Shown: positions 33,274 to 62,500 of the stretch, in pieces
How positions within the stretch are numbered: position 1 is the first letter of the stretch
Layout: each line of letters opens with the position of its first letter
NCBI GenBank assembly: GCA_903836515.1
Contig: CAILQW010000005.1
Span: 3,280-67,279, forward strand
Direction: 5' to 3'
DNA: 64,000 nucleotides
DNA from: Candidatus Omnitrophota bacterium
GTDB lineage: Bacteria; Omnitrophota; Gorgyraeia; Zapsychrales; Fredricksoniimonadaceae
Position numbers and translations under genes: made by a program
Notes under the pieces: model-generated
Database searches by the model: none
Seen by the model: only the letters and a program-made list of their open reading frames with translations
Told to the model about the DNA's origin: nothing

Positions 33274-33351
33274 AGGATATATTGAATTGTTGTCTTGAAG
33301 TCGATGGCGGCAAGATTTAACCCGCATTTTTCAATAGAAAGAGGCTGGAAG

Positions 33352-35112
33352 ATGAAGTTTTTTAAAATAGTGTTCTTTGGTGTTGTGGCCCTGGTGGTTC
33401 TTTTGATCGCCGGTCTTTATATTTTCTTTAAGACCTTTGATCTTAACCAGCATGTGCCCCAGATCACCCGCCAGATTTCCCTGACCCTTGGCCGTGATTT
33501 CAAGGTCGGGGGCGCGCAGATGGGTTTTTCTTTCGTGCATGGTATCGGGCTTCAGATCAGGGGTATTACGCTGGCCGATGACACCAGGTTCTCGGACAAG
33601 CCTTTTTTGACACTTGACCATATTGAGGTCGGGTTGAATGTCAACGCTTTCCTGTTCGAGCGCAGGATCCAGGTGACCGATGTGGTTATGGTTGCGCCCA
33701 GGATTGTGATCATCCGTTCAAGCAGCGGGACGATCAATGCCGCAGGGATCGGGGCTCAACCGTCGCCTGCCGCGACAGTACAGGCTTCTTCATCCGCCGG
33801 AGAGAAGGCGCTTCCCGCCGCCCTGCTTTCCCTTTTGGTCAAGGATGTGAAGATCACGGATGCGGATATTACTTACATTGACAGGATGATGTCTCCGGAG
33901 CTGGTGTTGTGGGTGAGTCATATCGATGCCCAGCTCAAGGATCTTTCTTTCGTGCGGCCTTTTCATGTGACGCTCAAGGCCGCCGTTTTCGCTGTTGAAC
34001 AAAATATGACGGTTGATGCGGACCTGGCGTTGGACATGGCCCAGCAAGCCGTACGGCTGACGGGGCTGAAGGTGGCGGCAGACCTGGCAAAGATCGATCT
34101 CGCGCTCCTTAAACAGGATGTGCCCATGATCGGCCCTGCGGGGTTGAAAAAACTTGATGGGACCGTTACTTTTTCCGTGGCCGATGCGCTGGCCGGGGCC
34201 GCGGGGCTTACGGCCCTTAAAGCCCGGATTCTTCTTGAGAAAGGGGAGGTCCTTACCACCCTTCTGGGAGTGCCCGCAGGGAATATCATGCTCAAGGCGG
34301 ATATGGATGAAAAGAAGATCGATGTTGGGAGTCTTGAATGTACTATCGCGGGCGGCACGCTGAAGGGGACAGCTTCGATCGCAGGTTATCTGACCGAGCC
34401 CTCGATCTCAACGGTTTTCAAGCTCGACACGGTGGATGTGAAGAAGCTCCTGGGGGGCTACAAGCTGCCTGTGAAAATAAGCGGGAATCTTTCGGCGTCC
34501 GGGAGCGCAACGTTTCAGGGCAAAACGCCGGAAAGTATCCTGGCTTCCCTGAAGGGGGATGCCCAGGGAGAACTCAAGAACGGCCAGCTTGACAATGTGA
34601 ATCTTTTGGCCCTGGGGCTGGAAAAAATCCCCATGCTTCCCGGTCTTCTGGATAGTATCCTGCCGGGGCTTTCCGCAGACACCCAGCAGGATGTGCGCCA
34701 GGGGATAACGCGTTTTGATACCTGTCGTGCGCAGGCAACAATGGCCGCCGGGGTGATCCAGGTTGCCGCCGCCGATATTGCGACCCGGGATCTGACCGTT
34801 CACGGGCAGGGCACAGTCAACATGTCCGGGCCCCTGGATTTCAAGGGGGAGATTCGTATGGCGAAGGCGGTGTCGGATGTGTTGGTGGCCAAGGCAGGGG
34901 ATCTGTCTGCCTTGCGGGATGAGCAGTCCCGGATCTATATGCCCCTGAGCATAAGCGGAACTTTGCTGAAGCCGCGGTTTATCCCGGATGTGGACTATTT
35001 GACAAGGAAGATAATCGCAAGCCAGGGGAGTGAACAGCTTAAGCAGGTCCTGGGGACTCCGGAAGCTTCACAGGCCGTTAACGCTGTCCTGGATCTTTTC
35101 AAGAAGAAGTAA
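33352..35112 (+). CDS. AsmA-family outer-membrane assembly protein
   Basis: Start at MKFFKIVFFGVVALVVLLIAGLYIFF (N-terminal TM anchor), followed by long beta-rich sequence with AsmA/DUF748-like features (GxxTxxG repeats, C-terminal GGTLKG...). Confidence 0.7.
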   Translation: MKFFKIVFFGVVALVVLLIAGLYIFFKTFDLNQHVPQITRQISLTLGRDFKVGGAQMGFSFVHGIGLQIRGITLADDTRFSDKPFLTLDHIEVGLNVNAFLFERRIQVTDVVMVAPRIVIIRSSSGTINAAGIGAQPSPAATVQASSSAGEKALPAALLSLLVKDVKITDADITYIDRMMSPELVLWVSHIDAQLKDLSFVRPFHVTLKAAVFAVEQNMTVDADLALDMAQQAVRLTGLKVAADLAKIDLALLKQDVPMIGPAGLKKLDGTVTFSVADALAGAAGLTALKARILLEKGEVLTTLLGVPAGNIMLKADMDEKKIDVGSLECTIAGGTLKGTASIAGYLTEPSISTVFKLDTVDVKKLLGGYKLPVKISGNLSASGSATFQGKTPESILASLKGDAQGELKNGQLDNVNLLALGLEKIPMLPGLLDSILPGLSADTQQDVRQGITRFDTCRAQATMAAGVIQVAAADIATRDLTVHGQGTVNMSGPLDFKGEIRMAKAVSDVLVAKAGDLSALRDEQSRIYMPLSISGTLLKPRFIPDVDYLTRKIIASQGSEQLKQVLGTPEASQAVNAVLDLFKKK

Positions 35113-46555: not shown

Positions 46556-47842
46556 GTGGATGGTAAAATAATTTTTCAGGGAGGCTGCGTGCATTCATTG
46601 CGTCCAGGAAAGTTGTGGGTGAGTTGTGTGATGGCGGCCGCAGTGTTGCTGGGTCCTGTGCGCTTGCTGCCGGATGCGTCTGCCGCGTCTGCCGCACATG
46701 AAGCGTATCTGCCTTTTTTTGAAGAGGTTTACACCCTGATGCAGGAACATTACTTCTTTGAAGTTCAGCGTTCCGATTTTGACCGGTTCCTCGAACTTTT
46801 TGATGCGAAGATTTATCCCGATATCCTTCGCCAGCACAAGAGCGCGGATTTCATCCGCTGGCGTACAGCCGCCTACCTGGTCGACACGCTCAAACAGCCC
46901 GATGATCTTTTTTCGCGTTTTTTGCCGCCCAAACCGGCCGTACAGTTTGCGAAGGAAGTTTACGGAAAAAAGATCGACCTGGGCATCGAGGGCCATACGA
47001 TTACCGGGGGAATGGTGGTGGATTTCGTGGAGCCCCGATCGGATGCCTACGCCAAAGGGCTGCGGGAGAACGACCTTGTGGTACGTCTTGATCAGGAGGA
47101 TGTCCTGATCCTGGGCGATAAACGGATGAGGGACCGGCTCAATCCTCTGGAGGGCGGGCGGGTCCTGATCGATTATTTTTCCGGGCAGACGCGCGCGCCT
47201 CATGCCATCGAGGTGGTCAGCCGCGAATACTTCAAGCAGACCGTTTTTCTTGTGCCGACGGGTGTGCCGGGTATCTATTGTTTGCAGATCCGTAAATTCA
47301 ATCAGGGTACCCCGGAAGATTTCAGCCGGCTCCTGGACCAGATCAGGCTCAGGAACCCCAGGGGGCTTGTGCTTGACCTGCGGGATAATCCAGGCGGGCC
47401 GCCTTTGGCCGCACGGGCCATTGCCGCATTTTTTCTTCCCAATGGAAAAGGTCTCGTCTATTTCGAAGGCCGCCGCCGGCCCCGTGCCGATCTCGATATT
47501 CCGGTGATTCCTGGCATGCTTCAGGTAGATTGGCCCGTGGCCATCCTGGTCAACAAGGGGACGGGGAGTGCCGCCGAACTTTTCACCGGGGTCCTCCAGG
47601 ACAAGAAACGTGCGGTGGTCCTGGGCGAGCAGACGGCCGGGCAGGTGTTGTTAAAAAGCTTGTTTGATCTTTCCGACGGTTCGACGCTGGCCCTGGTTAA
47701 TGCCCGGGGGCATTTTCCGGATGGAAGGCCTTTTCCTTTTGATGGCGTTCGTCCCGACGAGAAGCTTTCCGGTGTCACGCAGGAGGCGGCGGTGGGCCTG
47801 GCGGCGAAGTATCTTTATCTGTCCAGGGGGGGCGTGAAATGA
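46556..47842 (+). CDS. S41 family C-terminal processing peptidase
   Basis: Motifs LVLDLRDNPGGP and VAILVNKGTGSAAELFTGVLQD (catalytic Ser region) with a PDZ-like middle region. An N-terminal hydrophobic signal is likely; the start is uncertain. Confidence 0.75.
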   Translation: MDGKIIFQGGCVHSLRPGKLWVSCVMAAAVLLGPVRLLPDASAASAAHEAYLPFFEEVYTLMQEHYFFEVQRSDFDRFLELFDAKIYPDILRQHKSADFIRWRTAAYLVDTLKQPDDLFSRFLPPKPAVQFAKEVYGKKIDLGIEGHTITGGMVVDFVEPRSDAYAKGLRENDLVVRLDQEDVLILGDKRMRDRLNPLEGGRVLIDYFSGQTRAPHAIEVVSREYFKQTVFLVPTGVPGIYCLQIRKFNQGTPEDFSRLLDQIRLRNPRGLVLDLRDNPGGPPLAARAIAAFFLPNGKGLVYFEGRRRPRADLDIPVIPGMLQVDWPVAILVNKGTGSAAELFTGVLQDKKRAVVLGEQTAGQVLLKSLFDLSDGSTLALVNARGHFPDGRPFPFDGVRPDEKLSGVTQEAAVGLAAKYLYLSRGGVK

Positions 47843-48555
47843 CGCTGCGGATCCTGGTGATCATTCCTGCGTTCAATGAAGCCGGCGCGATCGAAGGGAC
47901 GGTGCGCGAAGTGCTCGCCCAGAAGGTGCCGGTCACCGCCCTGGTGGTCGATGACGGGTCTTCCGACGCAACATCTGCGCGGGCTGCGGCAGCAGGGGCG
48001 CTTGTCGTCCGCCTGCCGTTTAATCTGGGGATCGGCGGGGCGGTGCAAACCGGTTATCGTTATGCCGCGGCGCACGGGTACGACATCGCCGTCCAGGTTG
48101 ACGGCGACGGGCAGCACGACCCTTCTTATCTGGGGGCGGTCATGGCGCCTGTGGCCGATGGGCGTGTCGACATGGCTGTGGGCAGCCGTTTTATCGATGG
48201 ACACGCGGGGTTCCGTTCGTCTGCCTCCCGGCGGATCGGCATCCGGTTTTTGGGCATCCTTATCCGTCTTCTGACGGGACGGCCCGTCACGGATCCGACA
48301 TCGGGATTTCGTGCCTGCGGCAGGAAGTTCATCGGCGTTTTCGCCGCGTATTACCCGACAGATTATCCTGAACCCGAAGCCATGGTCGTGGTGCACCGCC
48401 TGGGCGGGCGCTTTACGGAAGTGCCGGTCGTCATGCGTCCGCGGCGCAGCGGGGTCAGTTCCATTGCCCTGCTCAAGCCGCTGTATTATATGATCAAGGT
48501 CTCGGGGGCCATCCTGTTGCATACGTTAAAGAACAGAAAGGTGTATGAACCATGA
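47839..48555 (+). CDS. GT2 glycosyltransferase, polyprenyl-phosphate sugar synthase-like (DPM1/GtrB-like)
   Basis: N-terminus VIIPAFNEAGAIEGTV...VVDDGSSDAT...FNLGIGGAVQTGYRYA...VQVDGDGQHDP; 238 aa, the size of DPM1-like enzymes. Confidence 0.85.
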   Translation: MTLRILVIIPAFNEAGAIEGTVREVLAQKVPVTALVVDDGSSDATSARAAAAGALVVRLPFNLGIGGAVQTGYRYAAAHGYDIAVQVDGDGQHDPSYLGAVMAPVADGRVDMAVGSRFIDGHAGFRSSASRRIGIRFLGILIRLLTGRPVTDPTSGFRACGRKFIGVFAAYYPTDYPEPEAMVVVHRLGGRFTEVPVVMRPRRSGVSSIALLKPLYYMIKVSGAILLHTLKNRKVYEP

Positions 48556-48908
48556 CCATCCAATGGCTTGCGATCATCCTGGCATCCACGGTGTTTATGC
48601 TCGTGATCGAGCTTGTCCGCCGTGAAAAACTGACTTTCAAGTACGCTTTTGCCTGGCTTTTTCTGGCGGCCCTGGGGGTTGTTTGTTCCGTTTTCCGGGG
48701 GCTTCTTTTTTTTCTTTCCGATCTTTGCGGGTTTGCGCTGGCCAGTAATTTTATTTTCTTTGCCATTCTGTGCGGGTTTGTTTTCCTGAGTCTTCTGATG
48801 ACCGTTTTCCTTTGCCAGCAGAACAGGCGCAATGACCGCATGGTGCAGGCCCTCGGGCTGCTTGAGCTTGAGGTCAGGGGGTTGAAGGAGCGTGTCGATG
48901 GCCGATGA
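48552..48908 (+). CDS. DUF2304-like small membrane protein
   Basis: 118 aa with 3-4 TM helices. Translationally coupled between two GT2 genes, a frequent context for DUF2304. Confidence 0.6.
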   Translation: MTIQWLAIILASTVFMLVIELVRREKLTFKYAFAWLFLAALGVVCSVFRGLLFFLSDLCGFALASNFIFFAILCGFVFLSLLMTVFLCQQNRRNDRMVQALGLLELEVRGLKERVDGR

Positions 48909-49887
48909 CCCGCTGGTGAGCGTGATCATCCCCGCGTACAATGCGCAGGCAACCGTGGCGGCTGCCATCGAGGCCGTTACGGCCCAGCGGTGTACCGGCG
49001 GCGTGGAGCTGGTTGTGGTGGATGATGGGTCCACCGACGCAACCGGAGATATTGTCCGGCGTTATCCCGGCGTTCGCTATATTCGCCAGGATAATGCCGG
49101 TCCGGCGAGTGCGCGTAACCGCGGGGCCGGGGAGGCGCGCGGGGCATTTCTTTTTTTTACGGATGCCGATTGTCGTCCCCAGCCTGGATGGGTGGCGCGG
49201 ATGATGCAAGGGTTTGGCTGTGATGATGTTGCCGCCGTATCGGGAAGCTACGGCATCGTTAACCCCGGTTCCTGGCTGGCACGGATCATCCATGCGGAAA
49301 TCCGTTACCGCCATACCAGGCTCATGCCCCGCCATCCGTTTTTTTTCGGCAGTTACAATGTGGCTGTCAGGCACGATGTCTTTAGGCGCGCAGGCGGATT
49401 TAATGCCGTCTATCGCCGGGCGAGCGGGGAAGATAATGATCTCAGCTACAGGATCGTAGCGGCAGGCGGGCGGATTCTTTTTATGGCCGACGCTTGCGTG
49501 GATCATTATCATCAGGAATCTTTGGGGCGTTATCTTCGGGAGCAGTTCCGCCACGGGTTCTGGCGTGTGAAAATGTACCTGGACCATCCGCAGATGATGG
49601 CGGGGGATGGGTATACCTTCTGGAAAGATATTGTGGAAGTTCCCTGCGTCCTGGGGCACGGGCTGTTGTGGTGGGGCTGGCCCTGGCCCTGGCCCTGGCC
49701 GTTACCGGCGGCGGGATTGTTCTTTCTGTTTGAAGTATTCTTCGGTTCGATGCTGATGCGGTCTTTCGGGCCGGGGGCGGCGGCCGGGGGCGTGATGTGG
49801 CTGCGGGCCTTTGCGCGCACCGCGGGGTTTATTGCCGGCGGGGTTTTCTTTCTTAAAAAGATATTTTTAATGCCCAAGAAAATTTAA
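48892..49887 (+). CDS. GT2 glycosyltransferase with C-terminal membrane segment
   Basis: VSVIIPAYNAQATV...VVDDGSTDAT...FTDADC, with a C-terminal hydrophobic region. Contains a (TGGCCC)n microsatellite encoding WPWPWPWP. Confidence 0.8.
   Translation: MSMADDPLVSVIIPAYNAQATVAAAIEAVTAQRCTGGVELVVVDDGSTDATGDIVRRYPGVRYIRQDNAGPASARNRGAGEARGAFLFFTDADCRPQPGWVARMMQGFGCDDVAAVSGSYGIVNPGSWLARIIHAEIRYRHTRLMPRHPFFFGSYNVAVRHDVFRRAGGFNAVYRRASGEDNDLSYRIVAAGGRILFMADACVDHYHQESLGRYLREQFRHGFWRVKMYLDHPQMMAGDGYTFWKDIVEVPCVLGHGLLWWGWPWPWPWPLPAAGLFFLFEVFFGSMLMRSFGPGAAAGGVMWLRAFARTAGFIAGGVFFLKKIFLMPKKI
49688..49711 (+). repeat. Hexanucleotide microsatellite (TGGCCC) x3 plus TGGCCG inside the GT2 gene
   Basis: Read directly: tggccctggccctggccctggccg encodes W-P-W-P-W-P-W-P. 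Confidence 0.6.
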
Positions 49888-49985: not shown

Positions 49986-50609
49986 ATGGCTAAGAAAGAA
50001 ACTGCAGAAGAAAAGCTGCTGAAAATCATCGAGGCCACCCAAAAGGCCAAAGAGGCCCCTGCATCGGCGACAGCCGCGGCCCCGGCTTCGGTCCCGGTTA
50101 AAAGAGCAGCCTCCCCTAAAATCATCATTTCATTCCGCCAGGTCAACACGGTTCTTGCCGTTGCCGCCCTGGCGGCGTTTATTTTTCTCGTGCATGAGGT
50201 CCAGCTCGGGCTGTCCCGTCTCAACGAAGATGTGAGCCTTTCCGTCGATCTTCCTGCGGTGAAAGACGCGGGAGGCCCTGCGGTGCCCCAGCTGAAAACG
50301 GCCGGCTGGTATCTCGACAAGGTCGCGGCACGCAATATTTTTCAACCTTACGAAAAAAGTTCTGCCGGCGGGCAGGGTGTCCCTTCGGATCGCGCCGCCC
50401 TGCAGACCAAGATAGGCAAGTATAAATTCGTCGGCGTGGCCTGGCTTGACGTCCCGGAATCGGCGACGGTGATGCTGGAGAATATTGCCACGAAAGAAAC
50501 CCGTTTCCTGAAAGAGGGCGACAAGATCGAGGATGTAACGGTCAAGACCATTTACACAGACAGGGCGGTCTTCAGTTACGCAAACGAGGAGATAACGATC
50601 AAGTTATGA
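49986..50609 (+). CDS. PilP/GspC-like secretin-associated inner-membrane protein (tentative)
   Basis: N-terminal charged region, one TM (VLAVAALAAFIFLV) and a C-terminal beta-sandwich-like segment (KYKFVGVAWLD...VMLENIATKETRFLKEGDKIEDVTVKTI...AVF) resembling PilP. Its ATGA stop/start overlaps the secretin gene. Confidence 0.5.
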   Translation: MAKKETAEEKLLKIIEATQKAKEAPASATAAAPASVPVKRAASPKIIISFRQVNTVLAVAALAAFIFLVHEVQLGLSRLNEDVSLSVDLPAVKDAGGPAVPQLKTAGWYLDKVAARNIFQPYEKSSAGGQGVPSDRAALQTKIGKYKFVGVAWLDVPESATVMLENIATKETRFLKEGDKIEDVTVKTIYTDRAVFSYANEEITIKL

Positions 50610-52204
50610 CAAACCACACACTTTCCCCCCGGAAGATCGTCCTGACACTGTTCGCGGGTATGGCGGCGGTGCTCGCCATCGCGGGATTTCGTCCCGCGGC
50701 CGCCGAAGAAGCGCAGACGCCCAGGCCGCTGATCATTTCCCAGCCGAAAGAATCTATCGACGAGCGCATGGCCCGCAAGATCGCCCTGGATGTCCGCGAC
50801 ATGAACATTGTGGATGTCCTCAAGTTTCTCGCCACGAAAGGCGAATTTAACGTGGTCATCAGCCCGTCGGTCGACGGACGCACGACAGTCCTCCTGGACA
50901 ATGTGGCCATCAAGGATGCCCTTGACATTGTGGTGATTTCCAGCCGCCTGGCGTACAGCATCCAGAACAATATTGTGCAGGTCATGACCGCCGCGGAGTA
51001 CGAGGGCATGTTCGGCAAGCAGTTCAGCGACAAGACCGTTGTGGCCACGTTCCGCCTGCAGTACGCCAAGCCGAGCTATGTCCTGGCGGCGCTCGACAAT
51101 ATGAAAAGCAATGTCGGGAAGATCATTATAGATGAAGATACCGGCGCGGTGGTCTTGATCGACACGCCTGATTCCATCGCCAAGATGAAAAAAGTGCTGG
51201 CCGACATTGAACAGCCGCTGGAAACGATCGTGTACAACCTGCAGTACGCCAAGGCGGATGTGGTCGCCGACAAGCTGCGCGCCAGGATCGACGCCAAGTC
51301 CGTGGGGTCGATCACGGCGGACGAGCGGTCGAACCAGCTGGTTGTCCGTGTGTTCCCCGGCCGCAAGGACGAGGTGGAGAAGATCGTCCGGCACCTGGAT
51401 GAGCCGACAAAAGAAGTGTTGATCGAGGCGCGGATCCTTCAGGTTATCTTCAAGCCCAGCTATGACGCAGGCATCGACTGGAATATCGCCTCCAGCGACA
51501 AGGCCAACCCCAACCTGCAGTTCAAGAATATTTACATGAATTCAAGCGGCATGAGCGCGACAGACAATCTTTCCACTACGTTCGGCCAGATTGCGGTGGG
51601 CAATATTAACGCGGACCGTTTCGCTCTTAATATCCGCGCGATGAAGCAGGTCAGCGATACCAAGCTTCTTTCGAATCCCAAGATCATGGCGGTTAACAAC
51701 GAGGAGTCCCGTATCCATATCGGCGATACGGTGCCCTATATCATTTCGACCGTGTCCGGCACCGGGGATAATGCTATCACCAGTGAAGATGTCCGTTTCA
51801 TCGATGTCGGCCTCAAGCTGAATGTGACCCCCACCATCAACGATGACGGGATGATCACCCTGAAACTCCGCCCCGAGATATCTTCTGTTGTTGGCAAACT
51901 TCAGTCGAAAAACAGCGGCGGTATCCCGCAAGTCAACAAGACAGAGGTGGAGACAACCCTTGTTGTCGAGGATGGCACGACCATCATCATGGCCGGCTTG
52001 CGTAAAGACGACAAGATCCACACCAAGACAGGTTTGCCCGTTCTCATGGACCTTCCTTACGTGAGCAAATTATTCAGCCGCGATTCCGACAGCATATCTT
52101 CGTCGGAGATCGTCATCTTCATTACACCGCATATTTTGACCGGCAAGGAAAATTACAAGGCGCCCGACGGGACCATCAAGCCGTCGAAGGCCTATAACAA
52201 GTGA
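50606..52204 (+). CDS. Secretin (GspD/PilQ family outer-membrane channel)
   Basis: Signal peptide, N-domains, and a C-terminal secretin domain (LLSNPKIMAVNNEESRIHIGDTVPY...FIDVGLKLNVTPTINDDGMITLKLRPEISSV...VLMDLPYVSKLFSRDSDSISSSEIVIFITPHIL). Confidence 0.85.
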   Translation: MTNHTLSPRKIVLTLFAGMAAVLAIAGFRPAAAEEAQTPRPLIISQPKESIDERMARKIALDVRDMNIVDVLKFLATKGEFNVVISPSVDGRTTVLLDNVAIKDALDIVVISSRLAYSIQNNIVQVMTAAEYEGMFGKQFSDKTVVATFRLQYAKPSYVLAALDNMKSNVGKIIIDEDTGAVVLIDTPDSIAKMKKVLADIEQPLETIVYNLQYAKADVVADKLRARIDAKSVGSITADERSNQLVVRVFPGRKDEVEKIVRHLDEPTKEVLIEARILQVIFKPSYDAGIDWNIASSDKANPNLQFKNIYMNSSGMSATDNLSTTFGQIAVGNINADRFALNIRAMKQVSDTKLLSNPKIMAVNNEESRIHIGDTVPYIISTVSGTGDNAITSEDVRFIDVGLKLNVTPTINDDGMITLKLRPEISSVVGKLQSKNSGGIPQVNKTEVETTLVVEDGTTIIMAGLRKDDKIHTKTGLPVLMDLPYVSKLFSRDSDSISSSEIVIFITPHILTGKENYKAPDGTIKPSKAYNK

Positions 52205-52232: not shown

Positions 52233-53069
52233 ATGAGGCCAGCAAATTCTTGGAAGTTACCGACCATCTTCGCCGCGGCCGCGGGAGTGTTTTTGTTCTC
52301 GGCCCCTCTTGCTGTTGTTGCCGCTGGAGCCGAGGCCGGGGTCCAGAACGCCCAGGTGGATCCTGAATCCCTGAAGAAGGAGATCGAGCGCCTGAAGAAT
52401 GAAAAAGATTACGAGTCCAAACGGGTCGAGGAAATGCGCAGCGAGCGTGAAGAATTTGTCAAGGAGATCCGCCGTGCCGAGAGCCAGAATACCAAACAGA
52501 CCAAGGAGATCGATGGTCTGAAAACCGCCCTTTCCCAGCAGCAGGAATCGTTTGAGGCCCGGATGAAGAAATTCGAGACCGACCTTAAGGATTCCCAGGA
52601 TCTCGGGCAGAGGAAGGCTTCAGTGCAGCCGGCGCCCGGCAGTCGGCCGCCCAGTGCATCTTTTGCCGTTGAAAAGGCAGCCGGAGAGGTCCTGCAGAAG
52701 GGCGGCGACCTTGATCCCGAGGATGAAAAGTTCAAGGAAGAACTGGCCCGTGCCCATTACAACATGGGTAATGTCTATTACGAAAGAGGCGAGTATCAGC
52801 GTGCTGCTGTCGAATACTACCAGGCCGTGGACCTCATGCCGTATGATGCCGATGCGCATTACAACCTGGCGTATGTCAGCGGGGAATTCATCGGCGACCA
52901 GGATGCGGCGCTGAAGCATTATCAGTGGTACCTTTATTTGAAACCCCTGGCCGAAGACCGTAAACTTGTGGAGGAAAAGATCGTCAGCGCGAAACTGACT
53001 GTCCGAAGCCGTGTTGATTCCAGCCTGGACAAGCCTGAGCTTTCCGGCCATCAAAACGTGGCCAGATAA
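52233..53069 (+). CDS. Secreted coiled-coil plus TPR repeat protein (possible pilotin/secretin accessory)
   Basis: Signal peptide, an E/K-rich coiled coil, then TPR-like helices (ARAHYNMGNVYYERGEYQRAAVEYYQAVDLMPYDADAHYNLAYVS). Confidence 0.65.
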   Translation: MRPANSWKLPTIFAAAAGVFLFSAPLAVVAAGAEAGVQNAQVDPESLKKEIERLKNEKDYESKRVEEMRSEREEFVKEIRRAESQNTKQTKEIDGLKTALSQQQESFEARMKKFETDLKDSQDLGQRKASVQPAPGSRPPSASFAVEKAAGEVLQKGGDLDPEDEKFKEELARAHYNMGNVYYERGEYQRAAVEYYQAVDLMPYDADAHYNLAYVSGEFIGDQDAALKHYQWYLYLKPLAEDRKLVEEKIVSAKLTVRSRVDSSLDKPELSGHQNVAR

Positions 53070-53137: not shown

Positions 53138-54718
53138 ATGAATATCAGAACGTCGGCGATCTTCGGGCTTGCGATTATTGTTGGTATTTTTTCACTTCCC
53201 GCCATTTCCCAGGCTAACGATCTTAAAGTATCCAATGTTCGCCTCGGTCCGCGTGATGCGAACGCAAAAACACTCGCGGTATTTTTCGATCTTTCCTGGC
53301 AGAATTCCTGGCGTAACAAGATCAATCATGATGCTGTCTGGGTGACGGTCCGCCTGCAGGATGCCCAGGCAGGTTCTTCCGAAAAGAAGCTGTGCCGCCT
53401 GTCGGTGAGCGGTCTTAACCCGTCCGGCACTTCTGCCGGTTCCAACAGTGACCTGGCCATCCAGGTACCCGCGGACAAAGCCGGGGCTTTTATCCGCCGT
53501 GTGGCCAATCATGCCACAGCTCCGGTCACAACAACCAGTGCCATGGTAACGGTTAATTACGACGCCTGTGGCCTGAGCGCGGCCAGCGAAGTGTCGGCCA
53601 CGCTGGTTGCCCTTGAAATGGTTTATGTTCCGCGCGGCGCATTTTATGCCGGCGATTATGCGGCGTCTCCCGCCGCGTTTCAGCGGGGCGGGGCGGACAA
53701 TAATCCCTGGCCCATCGCCAGCGAGTCCGCCATCAATGTCAGCGCGGCCTCGGCCAACGGATACTACTATGTTTCTGCCGGGAATGCCGGGGAGATGCCT
53801 TCGGCTGCCGCCTTTACGATCCCTGCCGCCTTCCCCAAGGGGTTTGATGCTTTTTATATGATGAAGTACGAGATCACGGAGGGCCAGTGGGTCGAGTTTG
53901 TCAACTCCCTGTCCTTTCCCGCACGTTCCCGGCGGGATGTGACCAATGCTTCCCACAAGAATTCCGATACGGTCATAGCGCGCGATGCCGTGGCATGCGC
54001 GGGATCGCCGCTTGTGTGCACCACCGACAGGCCTTACCGCGCCATGACCTTCCTGTCATGGCCGGACGTGTGTGCGTTCCTTGACTGGGCCGGGTTGCGC
54101 CCGATGACCGAGCTCGAGTTTGAAAAAGCGGCCCGCGGGCCCTTTCTTCCTGTCAACGGCGAATATGCCTGGGGGACGGCGGATATTCAGCCCGTGTCGG
54201 CTTTGTCCAGCGGGGCTGAAGAAGGCGGCGAACTGTCGGCAACGCCGGGCGCCAACGCGCGTTTCGACGGGATACTGCTTTCCGGGGGAGATGCTGCCGG
54301 CGGTTCTTCCTGTCAGGGCGGGCCGCTGAGAGTCGGTATTTTTGCCACGGATGCCTCGAACCGCATATCTTCCGGTGCCGGTAATTACGGGGCCATGGAA
54401 CTTTCTGGAAATGTCAAGGAGTGGACCGTATCCGTGGGCCATTCTGCCGCGCTGGCCTATACCGGGGTTAATGGTGATGGTGCTTTGACCACAACCACGG
54501 GTTTTGAAGGCAATGCGGATACGGCGTTGTGGCCCGGGATGGATGTGGATGCCAGCCATGGCGTGATACATGCCGCCGGAGCCGGGTTTCGCGGCGGCTC
54601 ATGGGCCGATCCGTCCGCCCGTTTGGCGATTTCGGATCGTACGGAAGCGGCGTCCTCCGCTACTGATGCCGCGGCGACCTATGGCGGTCGCGGTGTCCGT
54701 TCGGCGGAAGGCCAGTAA
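53138..54718 (+). CDS. Secreted FGE-sulfatase (SUMF1/formylglycine-generating enzyme) domain protein, paralog 1
   Basis: Signal peptide, a unique N-terminal domain of about 180 aa, then FGE-domain motifs (LEMVYVPRGAFYAGD; YMMKYEITEGQWVEFV; TFLSWPDVCAFLDWAGLRPMTELEFEKAARG; FRGGSWAD). Confidence 0.8.
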   Translation: MNIRTSAIFGLAIIVGIFSLPAISQANDLKVSNVRLGPRDANAKTLAVFFDLSWQNSWRNKINHDAVWVTVRLQDAQAGSSEKKLCRLSVSGLNPSGTSAGSNSDLAIQVPADKAGAFIRRVANHATAPVTTTSAMVTVNYDACGLSAASEVSATLVALEMVYVPRGAFYAGDYAASPAAFQRGGADNNPWPIASESAINVSAASANGYYYVSAGNAGEMPSAAAFTIPAAFPKGFDAFYMMKYEITEGQWVEFVNSLSFPARSRRDVTNASHKNSDTVIARDAVACAGSPLVCTTDRPYRAMTFLSWPDVCAFLDWAGLRPMTELEFEKAARGPFLPVNGEYAWGTADIQPVSALSSGAEEGGELSATPGANARFDGILLSGGDAAGGSSCQGGPLRVGIFATDASNRISSGAGNYGAMELSGNVKEWTVSVGHSAALAYTGVNGDGALTTTTGFEGNADTALWPGMDVDASHGVIHAAGAGFRGGSWADPSARLAISDRTEAASSATDAAATYGGRGVRSAEGQ

Positions 54719-54750
54719 CACTTTTTCAACCTTTAACCCCGAACAGACCT

Positions 54751-56379
54751 ATGCTAAAAAAAATCATTTTTTCGACCGTTGCCTGCGCATTGATTTCTTT
54801 TCCCGCTTTCGCCAACAACCTCCAGCTCAATCATTTTGATCTCTACGCTTCGGAGGCCTCCGCGCACCGGATGACCTTTACGCTGGATATCCGTCAGGAC
54901 AACAGCTGGCGCAGCGCGGCGTCCCATGATGCGGTGTGGATTTTTATGAAGTACTCCACGGATGCGGGACAGACATGGCATCACGCCAGCATGGGTGGCA
55001 TCGGCCTTAACCCGTCGGGGTTTGCAAGCCCCCAGGGATTCGAGATCCTTGTTCCCGCCGACATGAAAGGGTTCTTTTTTCGCCGGGCCGATATTCTGAC
55101 GGGGGCCCTGGATGCCAAGGCGGTTCATTTTGTGTGGAACTACGCGCAGGACGGTATTTCCGACGATACAGCCAATGCGGCCAATACCCTGACAAAGGTT
55201 TTTGGGCTCGAGATGGTTTATATCCCTGAAGGGGCTTTCTTTGCCGGTGACGGGGCGAGCGCGTCCCCCTTCCGTTTCAAGCAGGGGAGTGCGGATGACA
55301 GCCCGTGGTATATTTCCAGCGAGAATGCGATCACGACGACCAATACCGCTTCGGCTGGATTTTATTATCAGTCGACCGGGGCGTCCGGCGAGAATCTGTC
55401 GGGGGACGTGTTTTTGGTGCCCAACTCTTTTCCCAAGGGATATAAGGCTTTTTACCTGATGAAGTATGAGCTGACCGAGGGGGAGTGGACTGAATTTTTC
55501 AATGCCCTTTCTGCGGCAGCCAAAGCGACCCGCGATATCACAGCCTCCCTCAATGGCGGCAAGAATTCAACCGGTGTGGTTGACCGCAATACGGTGGCCT
55601 GGGATCCCGTTTATCCGTCACGCCCTGCGGTCACGATGCGTCCTTCCCGCGCGATGAGCTATATTTCCTGGCCTGATGCGGCGGCGTATGCGGATTGGGC
55701 CGGCCTGCGCCCCATGACGGAACTTGAGTTTGAAAAGGCGGCGCGGGGGGTGGATGTCAATTCCGTTACAGACGAATTTGCTTGGGGGAGTGCCAGTTAC
55801 AGCGCTGCCACCGCTGACCAGATATTTCCCGCCAATCAGGATGAGAATGGCACCGAAGCGGTTTTGAATGGAGCGGCCAATCTTAACCGGAATGCCCTGG
55901 GATGGACTTCCGGTGACGGGCGTCCCGGCGGGGCGGCGGAAGGTCAGAAGGGTCCTTTGCGTGCCGGAATTTTTGCGGAAAATTCGACAGCCCGCGTGAC
56001 CAGCGGCGGCGGATATTACGGCGCCATGGAACTTTCGGGAAATCTCGCCGAGCCGGCCGTCACGGTGGGCCGCGCGGAAGGCCGCCAGTTTTTAGGCTCC
56101 CACGGGGATGGCGAACTTTCAACGATATCAGGACATGAGGGGAATGCTACCAATGTGGATTGGCCCGGCATTGACGTTTCCGATGCGCGGCGCGGGGTGG
56201 ACAGGACGCTGGGGATCGGGTATCGCGGCGGCGATTTCCAGTCTGCCAGCATCCGCGATTTTCAGGTATCCGCGCGCAGTTTTGCCGCGAAAGATCCTGA
56301 CAGCGCGGGGTTTAAACAGCGCCACGATGCATCTTCCGGCATTTATTATGGCGCGCGCCTGGCCCGCACGGCCCCGTGA
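54751..56379 (+). CDS. Secreted FGE-sulfatase domain protein, paralog 2 (tandem duplicate)
   Basis: Same architecture as paralog 1 and about 45-50% identical by eye (LEMVYIPEGAFFAGD; YLMKYELTEGEWTEFF; SYISWPDAAAYADWAGLRPMTELEFEKAARG; YRGGDF). Confidence 0.8.
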   Translation: MLKKIIFSTVACALISFPAFANNLQLNHFDLYASEASAHRMTFTLDIRQDNSWRSAASHDAVWIFMKYSTDAGQTWHHASMGGIGLNPSGFASPQGFEILVPADMKGFFFRRADILTGALDAKAVHFVWNYAQDGISDDTANAANTLTKVFGLEMVYIPEGAFFAGDGASASPFRFKQGSADDSPWYISSENAITTTNTASAGFYYQSTGASGENLSGDVFLVPNSFPKGYKAFYLMKYELTEGEWTEFFNALSAAAKATRDITASLNGGKNSTGVVDRNTVAWDPVYPSRPAVTMRPSRAMSYISWPDAAAYADWAGLRPMTELEFEKAARGVDVNSVTDEFAWGSASYSAATADQIFPANQDENGTEAVLNGAANLNRNALGWTSGDGRPGGAAEGQKGPLRAGIFAENSTARVTSGGGYYGAMELSGNLAEPAVTVGRAEGRQFLGSHGDGELSTISGHEGNATNVDWPGIDVSDARRGVDRTLGIGYRGGDFQSASIRDFQVSARSFAAKDPDSAGFKQRHDASSGIYYGARLARTAP

Positions 56380-56529
56380 CTATTTTTATCCGACGGAGAT
56401 CTGCTTTTTCCGGTCGTTTTTCTTCAGCCTGGAATCATGGGAAAAAATTCTTAGAATTTCATTGAAGTCCAGTGCGATAATTCAGATAATGTACTCATCG
56501 ATGCCACCGTTTCATAACGATTCCTGGTA

Positions 56530-59500
56530 ATGAGAATAAATAAAAGACTGAAATTTATTCAACAGACATGGTTGCGTTGTGCCGTTACACTTATTATTAA
56601 TATCTTAATAAGTGGGCTGGCGGCAACGTATGCGCATGCCCAGTTTTCCGGCGGCGCGGAGAACGGCAATGCCACAGCCACCATTGGCAGCGATATTTTT
56701 ACAGGCGGCGCCCAGAACGGCACCACCAGCGCCACCTCCGGCAGCAACGGATCCCTTTCCTACGGGGATGCCACCCACATCGCCTTTTTGGTAACCCCTT
56801 CCAGCATCAAGCATGGCAATACCTTCGAACGTCAGCCGGTTGTGGCGGTGTTGGATGCCAGCGGCAATGTTGTGGCGGGCGATAATTCCACCCGCATTTC
56901 TCTCGCCATTCAGAACAATCCCGGTGCCGGAACATTAAACGGCACAACCTCTGTCACGGTTGTCCATGGTCTGGCGGCATTCACAGATCTTGGCATCACG
57001 CGTGCCGGCAATCTTTACACGATCATCGCGCGGGCCGACGGGCTGGGCAGCGCGGTTTCGGATGCCTTTGATGTTTTTGCGGGAACCGGCGCGAAGTTTG
57101 CGGCCATATGGGATGCGTCCCAGACGGCTTATTACATTTACAGCTGGATCGAGACGGACGGCCAGCGGCAGCCCATTACAACATCCAATGCCTATTGCAT
57201 GCCGCATCAAATCTGGAGATCTTCTTCAGGCACCCTTGTTTCCGAGAAAGCGGCCTGGACGCCGACAGTTGATGATGACAAAAACTGGTGTTTCAGCTCC
57301 GGCAGCAAATGGACGCCCAGCAACAGGGACGATTCTTATTTTATTTCTTTCGGGATCAACTGGGATGGCGGTCCTTTCGATGCCTACTCCTCCCTTGAGA
57401 TCACGGCCATGAATATTGCCGGCGTCAACTGGGATGACATTGCCGCGATGAAAGGCAAGATCGATGCGGTCAACTGGCAAAATATCGATGACATGGCCAA
57501 GTCGGATATCAACTGGGATGACGTGGCCCACATGGCTGCTGCGGCCGTGAACTGGGAATACCTGGGCGTCCTGCGTTCCGACATTGTGGACATCAAGAAT
57601 GTCACCGACCAGATGAGCGGGATCAACTGGACCAGTGCCAGGGACATGACCAATGCCGGGATCCAGTGGGCGGATGTCAGCGCCATGACCGCGGCGGGCA
57701 TCAACTGGGATGACCTGTACGCCATGACGCGCCAGGGGGTGAACTGGCAGGATATCGGCATTTTGTCATCGATTGGCATCAACTGGGACGATATCGGTGT
57801 TTTCTCCCAGGCCGCTGTCAACTGGTATGACATTGCCCGGCTCGCCGGGGTGGGTATCAACTGGCAGGATATTTCGGAACTGGCCGGCGCAGGCATCAAC
57901 TGGTACGACCTTGATGCGTTGTCTGTCGCCGGGGTGAACTGGACGGATCTCGCCATCATGACCGGGGCCGGGGTTAACTGGCCCGATCGTGTCAATTGGG
58001 ACAATCTGGCGGAACTCACCACAGCGAATATCAACTGGGACGACCTGACCGTCATGTCCGAGCAGGGCCTGAACTGGTATGACCTTGATGTGCTTACCGA
58101 GGCCGGGATCAACTGGAATGATCTTAACGCGCTGACGGTGGCCGGTATCAATTGGTATGACATCGAAGCCATGAGCACGGGCGGGGTGAACTGGAGTGAT
58201 ATCCAGGTCTTGTCCGCGGCGGGCGTCAACTGGCAGGATGTGAATGTGTTGACCCTTATCGCGGTCAACTGGAGCGATATCCAGGCGATGTCAGCAGCCG
58301 GGGTGAACTGGAATGATGTGGGGGAACTTTCCGCAGCCGGGGTGAACTGGAATGATATGGAGGCTTTGTCGCTCGCCGGGCTCAACTGGTCTGATATGAG
58401 CGCCTTTTCCCAGGCGCAGATCAACTGGAATGACATCCAGGCGTTTACCTCCGCCGGGGTGAACTGGAATGATCTTGGCGCCATGGCGGCCGCGGGTGTT
58501 AACTGGGATGATGTCCAGGCCCTGACCCATGTGGGTGTGAATTGGCAGGATATTGAGGCCTTGGGCGGGGCGGGGATCAACTGGGCCGATATCGGGCTCT
58601 TGTCCGCGCAAGGGGTGAACTGGTCGGATGTGGGATCGTTGACCGCCGCAGGCATCAACTGGGATGATGTGCAGGCCATGACCCGGATCGGCATGAACTG
58701 GTCGGATATGTCCGCTTTGTCTGCCGCCGGTGTCAATTGGTCGGATCTTGCCGGACTTTCCACCCGTGCGGTAAATTGGACGGATATACAGGCGCTGACC
58801 GCAGCAGGCATGAATTGGGACGACCTCCAGGCATTTTCCGCCGCGGGGATCAACTGGCAGGACATTCAGGTCCTGACAACCACTGCGGTCAATTGGGATG
58901 ATATTCAGGTTTTGTCTGCCGCGGGTGTTAATTGGTCGGATATTCAGGCTTTCACTAATATAGGGGTCAATTGGAATGATATCAGCCGGATGGCTGCTGC
59001 CGGTGTGAATTGGGATGATGTTCAGAGTCTTTCTGTAACCGGCGTCAATTGGACGAATCTTGCGGTGATGGGTGCGGCCGGGATCAATTGGGAAGATGTC
59101 AATACCCTGACCACGCGCGGCATTAACTGGGATAATGTCGAGGTGTTTGCCGCCGCCGGGATCAACTGGTCGGATGTGCAGACACTGACAGTCGCCGGTG
59201 TGAACTGGGATGATATTCAGCGGATGAGTATCAGCACCGTCAATTGGGATGATATGGCCGTGTTGTCTTCCACGGGCATCAACTGGGATGATCTTGCCAC
59301 GCTGTCCGGCAAGGGCGTCAATTGGGATGATCTTCTCGCGTTGACGTCCAAGGGTATCAACTGGGATAATCTGGCGGTCATGGCCGCTGACGGGATCAAC
59401 TGGACCGATATCGGGCGCATGGCCGGCGAAGGTATTAATTGGAGTGATATCGCCGTTTTCACGGTGGCTGGTGTCAACTGGGAGGATGTCGCTGTCCTTT

Positions 59501-62500
59501 CGGCTACGGGTGTCAATTGGCATGATATCGGCGTGTTCACGGCCGAGGGGATTAACTGGGGCGATATCCAGGCGTTGGCCGCGGCCGGCGTGAACTGGAC
59601 TGACGTCGGGGCCATGACTGCTGCCGGCGTCAACTGGGACGATATCGTTACCATTTCCCGAAAGGCGGTCAACTGGGATGATGTGACAGCCCTGTCTTCT
59701 GCCGGGGTTAACTGGACGGATATCCAGGAGATGTCCCAGCGCGGCGTCAACTGGGATGATGTTGCTGTCCTGGCCCGCACGGGTGTGAATTGGGACGATA
59801 TCGCGGTGCTGGCGTCGCGCGGCGTGAATTGGGACGATGTTCAGCATTTGGCGGCGTCAAATGTGAATTGGGATGATATTGGCCGACTGACAGTTACAGG
59901 TGTGAACTGGGACGATCTCTACAGCCTGTCGGTCAAGGGGGTCAACTGGGATGATGTCCTTGTCCTGACCAACGCCGGCGTGAACTGGGCGGATATAGGT
60001 GATCTGTCGTCGCGTGGTGTTAATTGGTCCGATATTGCCCGCATGGCCGATGCCGGGATCAACTGGGATGATGCACAGGCCTTGACCGCGGTCGGGGTGA
60101 ATTGGCACGATGTGGCTGTGTTGACAACCGCCGGATTGAACTGGTCGGATGTGAATGCCATGGCCTCAGCGGGTGTTAACTGGGGGGATATCGCCCTCCT
60201 GAGCGCGACGGGGGTCAACTGGGACGATGTCCAGGCCATGGCCGCCAAAGGTGTCAACTGGGATGGGCTGGCAAGCCTCGCGGCCGCTGGGGTCAACTGG
60301 ACGGATATTTCTGTGTTAGCAGCAACCGGAGTGAACTGGTCTGATGTCAATGCCATGACTGTGGCCGGGGTCAATTGGGATAACCTGACATCCATGACCA
60401 CATCCGGGGTGAATTGGGCGGATCTGACAACGCTGACATGGGCGCAGGTCAATTGGGATGATGTGAGTGCGCTTTCCGCGAAAGGTGTCAACTGGACAGA
60501 TCTCGGGGCCATGAGTGCGGCGGGGATAAACTGGCTGGATATCAGCACGTTGGCGGTTGCAGGTGTTAACTGGGATGACCTTCATGTCCTTTCCCAGGGT
60601 GGCATCAACTGGTCTGATATCGAGGTGTGGTCCGCTGCTGGTGTGAACTGGGCTGACATCGGGGCTGTAAGCGTGGCGGGTGTTAACTGGATGGATATCC
60701 AGGTGTTGACCAGCGCAGGTGTCAATTGGAGCGACCTGGAACGATTGGGTGTTAGCGGTGTTAACTGGGATGATCTGGCTGTTCTGGCCGGGACAGGTGT
60801 CAACTGGCTCGATCTTCAGTCGTTCACCATCGCCGGGATCAATTGGAACGACCTCGCGGTCCTTACAGCCAATAATGTGAACTGGGATGATATTACACGT
60901 CTTTCTGCCGCGGGTGTGAACTGGGAAGATGTGGGTACCATGGCGGCCTCCGGTCTCAATTGGGAAGATATTCAGCAAATGACCGCCAAGGGGATTAATT
61001 GGACGGATATCGCCGCGTTCACATCTTCTTCTATTAATTGGGCTGATCTGCAGGTACTGGCGGGGACGGGTGTTAACTGGAATGATATCCAGGTCCTCTC
61101 GCTGCAGGGTGTGAACTGGGTGGACATCGGGGGGCTTGCCGCCGCAGGGATCAACTGGACAGATCTCCAGGCGCTCGCATCAACGGGAGTGAACTGGAGC
61201 GATATCAGCGTCATGTCCGTGCAGGGGGTCAATTGGGATGATATTAATACCCTTTCCACGCGCGGGGTGAACTGGGAGGATGTGGCTGTCCTCGCGGGTA
61301 AAGGTATTAATTGGAATGATATCCAGGCATTGTCGTTGAGCGGCCTTAACTGGTTTGATATGGAGGCCATGACAACAGCGGGCGTGAACTGGGATGATCT
61401 CCAGGCCATGGCCGGCAAAGGCGTGAACTGGGATGACATCCAGGTCCTGAGCGGACGCGGTATCAATTGGGTCGATGTTGATACGCTTTCCAAGGCGGGC
61501 GTTAACTGGTCTGATATCGTGGCGTTGAGCACAACGGGTGTGAATTGGAACGATCTTGAAGTTTTAGCGGCAGCGGGTGTGAACTGGGAGAACCTCCAGT
61601 CACTGGCCGGCACAGGGATTAACTGGGACGATATCCAGGTGCTCTCCGTCCGCGGGATCAACTGGGATGATATTGTGGCCATGTCGCAGGGGGGCGTGAA
61701 CTGGTCGGATATCGGCGCGCTTTCCTTGGCCGGGGTGAATTGGAATGATATGGGGCTGTTGGCGCAGGCCGGTGTGAACTGGGCTGATATTGATGCTATG
61801 ACGACCGTTGCCGTGAACTGGGATAACGTTCAGGCGATGTCCGTGGCAGGGATCAACTGGGCCGATGCCGGTGCCTTAACCACGGCCGGCGTCAACTGGA
61901 CCGACATGAATGTGCTGACCGCTGCGGGAGTTAACTGGGCCGATGTGGGCGCCCTCAGCGCGGCGGGAGTGAACTGGGGCGACATCAACACACTGACCGC
62001 GGCCGGGGTGAATTGGGCGGATGTCAGTGCCTTGGCGGGGGCCGGCATTAATTGGGCAGATGTAGGTTCCTTGAGTGCCGTCGGGGTGAACTGGTTTGAT
62101 GTGAGTGCCCTCACGGTGGCGGGCGTGAACTGGGATAATATTCAGCTGATGTCTGCGGCCGGTGTCAACTGGGATAATGTGACGGTGATGGGGACTTCCG
62201 GTGTGAACTGGGCGGATATTGCGGCCTTGAGTGCGGCAGAGGTCAACTGGTCGGATGTCAATGCGCTTACGGCGGCCGGGGTCAACTGGAGCGATATTGG
62301 CATATTAAGCGATGCCGCTGTGAATTGGGACAATGTGCAGGTGCTTTCCATCGCGGGTGTTAACTGGGACGACCTTAATGTGATATCCCGGACCGGTGTG
62401 AACTGGACGGATATCGGTGCCCTGAGCGAGGCGGGCGTGAACTGGGCCGATGTAAATGCCTTGACGGTGGCGGGCATGAACTGGGACAGCCTGCAGTCAC

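Follow-up and report, generated by a model that had tools for sequence, protein, structure and literature searches.

Why should two secreted proteins of the formylglycine-generating enzyme (FGE) family be encoded in tandem directly upstream of a giant secreted protein, at a locus with no sulfatase gene? The question is raised by a 64-kb stretch of DNA from a Candidatus Omnitrophota bacterium (contig CAILQW010000005.1; we call the whole stretch the window). The two open reading frames (ORFs), which we name FGE1 (53138–54718, 526 aa) and FGE2 (54751–56379, 542 aa), both lie on the forward strand, with exactly the coordinates given in an earlier sequence-only reading, and the gene for the giant, fiber-like protein starts at 56530 on the same strand. 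Our preferred answer, to which we give about an even chance, is that FGE1 and FGE2 would act as non-catalytic docking proteins, one for each of two short tags at the N-terminus of the fiber. Both belong to a large, multi-phylum family with an FGE/C-type-lectin fold, and that they are non-enzymatic is part of the same even-odds proposition.

Sequence, fold and lost catalytic residues of FGE1 and FGE2

The two proteins are paralogs with 42% sequence identity over 513 aa (BLASTP, E = 4e-117), and both exceed the gathering cut-off (23.3 bits) of the Pfam family PF03781, FGE-sulfatase (E = 2.3e-14 for FGE1 and 2e-12 for FGE2). The Pfam match spans only the central ~110 residues, and solved FGEs align to FGE1 and FGE2 over only ~55 residues, around the motif W-x-D-x-x-A-x-x-x-W-A-G-x-R-x-x-T-E-x-E-x-E-x-A-A-R-G. 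The W-P-D and R-G-G-S/D motifs pointed out in the sequence-only reading are indeed there: FGE1 carries SWPDVCAFLDWAGLRPMTELEFEKAARG and RGGSW, and FGE2 carries RGGDF. Both proteins appear to begin with a Sec-type signal peptide ending in A-x-A, MNIRTSAIFGLAIIVGIFSLPAISQA before NDL in FGE1 (residues 1–26) and MLKKIIFSTVACALISFPAFA before NNL in FGE2 (residues 1–21); signal peptides, and a membrane helix mentioned below, were judged by eye, without a dedicated predictor. The N-[ND]-L just past the signal peptide is invariant across the family. The initial description of the pair as tandem paralogous secreted proteins with an FGE-sulfatase domain is thus borne out.

An N-terminal module shared by both proteins had also been noticed, and it exists, but with about 130 residues (residues 27–155 of FGE1, nucleotides 53216–53602; residues 22–145 of FGE2) and not the 180 or so first estimated. 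An AlphaFold2 model of FGE1 built from 92 homologs (pLDDT 90.6, pTM 0.91) predicts this module to be an Ig/FN3-like beta-sandwich, and in FGE2 it bears an Asp-box-like S-x-D-x-G-x-T-W. The remainder is assigned to a domain of the FGE/C-type-lectin fold, without the Cys pair in FGE1 (residues ~156–526) and without any Cys in FGE2. Each protein has more than 100 full-length relatives at 51–78% identity, and those with a source name come almost all from metagenome-assembled genomes (MAGs) of Omnitrophota. FGE1 and FGE2 each have their own set of orthologs, those of FGE2 being 59–78% identical and always encoded second of the pair, and 17 positions are conserved within the two ortholog families yet different between them, among them S488D and D491S in what used to be the active-site stretch.

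Canonical aerobic FGEs (human SUMF1 and the enzymes of S. coelicolor and T. curvata) have in common with FGE1 and FGE2 the Pfam family, the motif W-x-D-A-x-A-Y-x-x-W-A-G-x-R-L-P-T-E-x-E-W-E and the RGGS stretch, but they also have a catalytic, copper-binding Cys pair (RGGS-x-x-C-x-x-x-x-C) and a sulfatase substrate, neither of which FGE1 and FGE2 have. In a profile alignment, LRGGSYLCHDSYCNRYRVAARS of the S. coelicolor enzyme is matched by frGGsfadssa---rlrisdRs in the family, so that the position of the first catalytic Cys is D491 in FGE1 and that of the second falls in a 3-residue deletion. No Cys or His is invariant in 92 Omnitrophota sequences or in 68 sequences from several phyla, and the sole Cys of FGE2 sits in its signal peptide, leaving the mature protein Cys-free. 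Therefore, as judged from these alignments, the copper/Cys-pair mechanism of FGE is excluded for FGE1 and FGE2. Of the earlier suggestion that they might be non-canonical FGE-fold proteins, either binding modules or other oxidases, the non-canonical part stands and the oxidase option finds no support, since no Cys or His is conserved. Charged residues that are invariant or nearly so in the 68 multi-phylum sequences include R282, R321, R333, R398, R409, R501, R518, E160, E327 and E329.

The claim that no sulfatase gene accompanies the pair was upheld in a check that covered the 64-kb window: a Pfam scan of 33 window ORFs, the longest included, gave no sulfatase match (the remaining listed ORFs lay outside the scan), a six-frame scan of the window found no PROSITE sulfatase signature, and no protein of the conserved gene cassette described below contains CxPxR. 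The giant protein had been singled out as having no CxPxR and no Cys in its repeats; we find only three Cys in it (residues 17, 223 and 254), none of them in a CxPxR or in a repeat.

An N-terminal tag on the downstream protein

The giant protein (56530–64000, forward strand, running past the end of the window) starts with a putative signal peptide (residues 1–37) followed by a Gly/Ser/Thr-rich tail in which there are two similar motifs: QFSGGAENG at residues 38–46 (56641–56667, forward strand), the predicted mature N-terminus, and IFTGGAQNG, preceded by D, at residues 56–64 (56695–56721, forward strand), ahead of the apparent first Ig-like region. The corresponding peptides would be pGlu-FSGGAENGNAT, with the first tag in its pyroglutamate form, and SDIFTGGAQNGTT.

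Across phyla, the gene directly downstream of the FGE-like gene or genes codes for a secreted protein in which a signal peptide is followed by [YF]-x-G-G-x-x-x-G. Using a simple regular expression, [FYW]xGGx(1-4)G within the first 90 residues, we found that, of 78 assessable loci, at least 51 have a tag-bearing downstream gene, compared with 11 of the 731 other genes in the same loci (1.5%). A sequence logo anchored on the first motif in 53 loci reads A(-2) Q(-1) [YF] [TS] G G [SN] [GY] [DR] G [DS], that is, a consensus Q-[YF]-[TS]-G-G-x-x-x-G preceded by A right at the signal-peptide cleavage site. From the A(-2) and Q(-1) of this logo it follows that the tag would start where the mature protein does, Gln being residue +1. 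No model in Pfam or NCBIfam covers the tag, which the sequence-only reading had missed and which is the best pointer to function that we have. The proteins that bear it are otherwise unrelated between lineages, with a T9SS (type IX secretion system) type-A C-terminal domain in Bacteroidota and Ignavibacteria and a giant fiber in Omnitrophota.

The family on which this comparison draws is large. A profile of the N-terminal domain, run against 1.84 billion proteins, hit 1,876 cluster representatives (50% identity) at E ≤ 1e-3 and 897 at E ≤ 1e-10, and in the longer members that were checked this domain is joined to PF03781. When each GTDB species was scanned in one genome, at least 584 loci were confirmed, and the phyla among the loci listed include Bacteroidota, Ignavibacteriae, Verrucomicrobiota, Lentisphaerae, Bdellovibrionota and Proteobacteria (34–38% identity over the full length), with the cultured Neotamlana nanhaiensis (Bacteroidota) among the carriers. 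About 30 loci, which we call Omnitrophota-type, share a fixed gene order: a GspC-like gene, a secretin, a TPR protein, FGE-like genes numbering one, two or four (their products 37–100% identical to FGE1) and a giant protein with NW repeats. Outside this group we found neither a secretin nor a giant, save for one distant secretin match in locus L047. The proposed co-occurrence of the pair with the 13-residue-repeat protein is therefore kept in ~30 loci, and so is the link behind the idea of recruitment to a fiber locus; the notion that the family is specific to fiber loci or to Omnitrophota is not, because it is multi-phylum.

Within the Omnitrophota-type loci the number of genes follows the number of tags. 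Two FGE-like genes go with two tags in 22 of 22 loci, and one gene goes with one tag in 6 of 6. The one-gene, one-tag state occurs at three places on a neighbor-joining tree of the adjacent secretins (L017 beside L018, L037 beside L033, and the clade of L028, L029, L035 and L038), so there were apparently at least three independent changes, and the match between genes and tags is not one inherited event. In Bacteroidota, a pair of FGE-like genes is accompanied by two tags at both L044 and L059. Separate orthologs for each paralog, together with two different motifs where there are two paralogs and one where there is one, agree with the earlier proposal of subfunctionalization after duplication.

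Some tagged proteins elsewhere are unusual in their own right. In Bacteroidota there are tag arrays, with repeats of ~25–30 residues by eye (L[FY]xGGxGDG[FHY]) in up to 23 copies and then a T9SS sorting domain, at L040 (10692–11918), L055 (11472–13943), L068 (11504–12721) and L077 (8188–17154); these repeats, whose GGxGDG core is RTX-like, form a family that has not been described. A Verrucomicrobiota MAG (L070, 6671–15682) has four to five tandem FGE-like paralogs and then a 298-aa tagged protein, in which the tag occurs near the N-terminus (WFLGGSYDGYD) and again near the C-terminus (SFSGGSYDGCD).

Behind its tail and Ig-like region, the giant of the window consists of 13-residue repeats, GVNWxDhxxhsxx (GVNWxD[IL]xx[LM][ST]xx), which begin at about nucleotide 57400 after ~300 residues. 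There are ~170 near-perfect copies inside the window (57400–64000), the spacing from one NW to the next is exactly 13 aa in 162 of 168 cases, and at the DNA level the repeats form 39-nt families; similar 13-aa repeats are seen in L002 (13242–21593). Short-read contigs usually break within the repeats of the giant, and a 1.34-Mb contig encodes an orthologous protein of 8,087 aa. Residues 1–357 match no Pfam family, the Ig-like region there having been read by eye, and the 13-aa repeats have only spurious matches in Pfam and NCBIfam (CW_7 and Lysostaphin_N). A homolog search with the first 330 residues returned only fragments that do not reach the C-terminus.

Docking, catalysis and other explanations

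We read FGE1 and FGE2 as proteins that recognize the tag without catalysis because their fold has lost its Cys pair, their genes adjoin that of the tagged protein, gene and tag numbers match, the former substrate groove contains paralog-specific residues, and the domains fused to family members are mostly of a binding type. These fusions, in longer members of the family, are CBM9, Lcl_C, PKD, DUF285 leucine-rich repeats and a beta-propeller; redox-type domains occur in one fusion only (P0357, with HZS_alpha and a weak cytochrome c match). The fusion carriers are L080 (2480–4783), L044 (9851–15949), L073 (3737–8047), P0251 and P0357, and one type of fusion adds a second, far more canonical FGE domain (PF03781, 2e-59).

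In the mechanism that we propose, each paralog would dock its former FGE substrate groove onto one tag in the flexible Gly/Ser-rich tail of the giant, FGE1 and FGE2 each taking one of the two tags, which differ in sequence. Assembly of the complex would be periplasmic, and the neighboring export module of GspC-like protein, secretin and TPR protein would handle it. We infer the physical binding, the binding site and the final location of the FGE-like proteins. Folded proteins are exported by secretins as well as by the T9SS, and type-A cargo of the T9SS is anchored at its C-terminus, which leaves an N-terminal tag distal; for these reasons our preferred version is that the FGE-like proteins would be exported with the fiber and form a lectin-like tip or cap at its distal end. 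Alternatively, they may remain periplasmic and serve the N-terminus as a chaperone or an anchor, in the manner of the docking hubs PorK and GldK.

Inactive FGE folds have been put to such use before. PorK, GldK and GldJ reuse a Cys-less FGE groove as a docking interface for partner proteins (PMC12421860, PMC12635249), and among known systems they are the closest in mode of action to FGE1 and FGE2, with which they have the Cys-pair-less fold in common, although for FGE1 and FGE2 docking is deduced from genomic correlations. PorK has a large helical insertion where FGE1 and FGE2 have instead an N-terminal Ig-like domain, the ligand that we propose is a linear N-terminal tag on the cargo, and in the window the pair is encoded beside a secretin and not a T9SS. 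The eukaryotic protein pFGE/SUMF2 is also inactive, but it is a single-domain protein of the endoplasmic reticulum that modulates FGE, whereas FGE1 and FGE2 add a beta-sandwich and long loop insertions and have a genomic context unrelated to sulfatases.

Several observations weigh against docking in the form proposed here. In about a third of the loci the neighbors have no tag (some are beside solitary paralogs, and some loci lie at contig ends). The two Omnitrophota-type loci with four FGE-like genes have two clear tags, the count for four-gene loci being two or three, and outside Omnitrophota single FGE-like genes adjoin partners with anywhere from 1 to 23 tags, so the numerical rule is not general; within Omnitrophota the correlation is drawn from related genomes and from a simple motif expression. 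The Bacteroidota FGE-like protein that was scanned (L079, from N. nanhaiensis FHC16; 489 aa) lacks a C-terminal domain of T9SS type and would therefore be periplasmic by default, which speaks against a distal tip unless it is co-exported. Finally, the many invariant Arg, Glu and Trp residues of the family could equally build an active site that has gone unrecognized.

This last point leads to the strongest alternative, that the FGE-like proteins have a new kind of active site, independent of Cys, and act as enzymes that modify the downstream [YF]xGG tag in the periplasm before export, as FGE does with an unfolded CxPxR peptide; we consider this unlikely but by no means negligible. Canonical FGE recognizes a short linear peptide in an unfolded region, as we also propose for FGE1 and FGE2, and such an enzyme would be well served by a linear motif that is short, lies in an unstructured tail and is encoded strictly next door; the invariant charged residues listed above and a periplasmic L079 protein would fit as well, and some FGE-like proteins that lack the Cys pair (EgtB and OvoA) do take part in catalysis. 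However, copper or iron would find no conserved Cys or His ligand in the family, and the metal site of EgtB lies in a DinB domain that is missing from FGE1 and FGE2. One enzyme could serve both motifs, so a one-to-one match of paralogs to motifs would not be expected, and the fusion partners are mostly binding domains, with P0357 as the only redox-type case. An EgtB-like iron enzyme in particular is ruled out, as both a DinB domain and a conserved His are missing: where EgtB, OvoA and SenA have an N-terminal DinB domain and a 3-His iron site, the N-terminal domain here is the Ig/FN3-like beta-sandwich, and FGE1 and FGE2 score 11.3 and 24.8 bits with the EgtB model (cut-off 360) and 16.8 and 27.6 bits with the SenA model (cut-off 420). 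The NCBI name "nonheme iron enzyme" for the family accordingly finds no support in these comparisons.

It is more doubtful still that the FGE-like proteins are subunits of the secretin apparatus, such as a PorK-like periplasmic ring or a pilotin accessory, that have nothing to do with the cargo motif. The secretin is their neighbor in every Omnitrophota-type locus whose contig reaches far enough upstream, but in Bacteroidota, Ignavibacteria, Verrucomicrobiota and Proteobacteria the family occurs without a secretin and yet beside a motif-bearing protein, and the gene copy number tracks the number of motifs in the cargo and not the secretin. PorK and GldK are lipoproteins, whereas the signal peptide of FGE1 has no Cys, that of FGE2 has an atypical TVAC, and no lipobox Cys is near-invariant among the 92 Omnitrophota sequences, again as judged without a dedicated predictor. 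The score against the GldK equivalog model (NCBIfam TIGR03525) is 22 bits, compared with a cut-off of 350. PorK and GldK are encoded with PorL, PorM and PorN, whereas the neighbors of FGE1 and FGE2 are the GspC-like, secretin and TPR genes, with no Por/Gld families among the ORFs scanned.

The same fold subclass is used for pure ligand binding by the variable proteins of diversity-generating retroelements (DGRs) such as TvpA, TaqVP and Mtd, which have an FGE-type C-type-lectin fold and work on cell or phage surfaces, often at fiber tips (PMC5006420, PMC6328139). Many DGR targets share this fold, but it is very improbable that the FGE-like proteins are variable ligand-binding proteins diversified in this way: a repeat search over the whole 64-kb window found no template/variable pair, which rules out a DGR target there, the only repeats touching FGE1 and FGE2 being matches between the paralogs; no reverse transcriptase was matched among the window ORFs scanned against Pfam; and the C-terminal part, which in DGR targets holds the variable region, is one of the best conserved in the family (R501, G516 and R518 are nearly invariant), with no hypervariable C-terminus. 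Equally hard to credit is that FGE1 and FGE2 are ordinary FGEs maturing a sulfatase encoded elsewhere in the genome, as their PF03781 match and public names ([quoted passage not shown], "SUMF1/EgtB/PvdO family nonheme iron enzyme") would have it, because canonical maturation is ruled out by the missing Cys pair and the lack of a sulfatase or CxPxR in the window, their similarity to real FGEs is confined to those ~55 residues, and their conserved genomic partner is a fiber or a T9SS cargo protein.

Gene neighborhood and significance

All the genes of the cassette are on the forward strand. It opens with the GspC/PilP-like protein (49986–50609, 207 aa), which has one predicted membrane helix and no Pfam match; its ortholog in locus L004 has a weak match to PF11356 (T2SSC), and the gene is directly upstream of the secretin in ~30 loci. 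The outer-membrane secretin (50606–52204, 532 aa) has the Secretin and Secretin_N domains of a secretin-based export module (3e-46 and 1.8e-21) and a weak STN match. Next comes a secreted coiled-coil and TPR protein (52233–53069, 278 aa; TPR_11, 2.4e-10; TPR_1, 3.9e-07), which is likewise syntenic and, by its position, may be pilotin-like. No cognate ATPase, platform protein or pseudopilins are present among the annotated window ORFs, though they could lie elsewhere in the genome. Between FGE2 and the gene for the giant lie 150 nt (56380–56529) that contain one terminator-like hairpin (56394–56412) and one promoter-like site (56462–56490); across the cassette region, such sites are no commoner than in shuffled sequence.

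Upstream of the cassette is a trio of genes identified by Pfam as GT2, DUF2304 and GT2 (47839–49887, forward strand), itself preceded by S41 peptidase and glycine-cleavage genes. The trio is present in L001–L018, L020–L022, L024 and L031, and absent from L023, L028, L029, L033, L035, L037, L038, L049 and L069; L019 has weak GT2 matches only, without DUF2304. It is thus syntenic only in the main Omnitrophota clade, and whether it is part of the cassette system is uncertain: it may be a source of lipid-linked sugar for periplasmic glycosylation, or mere conserved gene order. Further upstream on the forward strand are a 3,291-aa ORF (17964–27839) with weak DUF11, Big_6 and CarboxypepD_reg matches and a TPR-rich, 1,786-aa ORF (27913–33273) with 189-nt (63-aa) repeats, followed by an AsmA/YhdP-like gene (33295–35112); these may be another envelope or surface system. 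The complete Omnitrophota-type cassette also occurs in many MAGs that represent GTDB species and are titled "uncultured Planctomycetales" or "Planctomycetia" (L006, L008, L009, L013–L015, L017, L019, L023, L031, L036 and L069), with up to 58% identity to the FGE1 of the window; these titles look taxonomically mislabeled.

Giant-gene loci of Omnitrophota with secretin-type secretion genes upstream have been described by West-Roberts et al. (bioRxiv 10.1101/2023.11.21.568195), who propose a role in prey attachment. Their loci are from the same phylum and also encode giant secreted proteins, but they have more than 10 type II secretion system or type IV pilus genes (gspD/E/F, rcpC) and giants of "Archaeovorin" or dockerin type, where the window has instead a giant with 13-aa NW repeats and a minimal module of GspC-like protein, secretin and TPR protein. 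FGE or sulfatase-type proteins are mentioned neither elsewhere in that paper nor in its section on genes near giants. In the literature on Omnitrophota giant genes, on FGE/SUMF1 and the T9SS, and on FGE, C-type lectins and DGRs, we did not find this family or its tag described. Repurposed inactive FGE folds were already known; what is new is the Ig-like plus FGE-like architecture, the size and spread of the family, the N-terminal tag of its neighbor, and the cassette of secretin and giant fiber.

For the annotation of the family the consequences are direct, since thousands of proteins, which fall into no fewer than 1,876 clusters (50% identity), are labeled "formylglycine-generating enzyme" or "SUMF1/EgtB/PvdO nonheme iron enzyme" and fit neither chemistry. 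An FGE groove that reads a [YF]xGG tag is a concrete hypothesis that would extend the docking-scaffold role of PorK and GldK in the bacterial envelope. More tentatively, the FGE-fold receptor could form, with the tag Q-[YF]-[TS]-G-G-x-x-x-G at the N-terminus of its partner, an unrecognized two-component system of several phyla, in which the tag would be an address or assembly signal for surface proteins and the receptor either a lectin-like head at the distal tip of fibers and T9SS-anchored proteins or the installer of a new post-translational modification of the Gly-Gly tag. Cultured carriers among the Flavobacteriia, such as N. nanhaiensis and Polaribacter, open the family to genetics and biochemistry. 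For Omnitrophota, which are uncultured and probably predatory or parasitic nanobacteria, the locus points to a secretin cassette of compact make-up that serves one giant repeat fiber; if the wider proposal is true, these ultra-small, host-dependent cells would carry a surface fiber in the 8,000-aa class fitted with two specialized heads. The FGE-like proteins are thus candidates for the tip or the anchor of that fiber, which bears on how Omnitrophota cells attach to their hosts.

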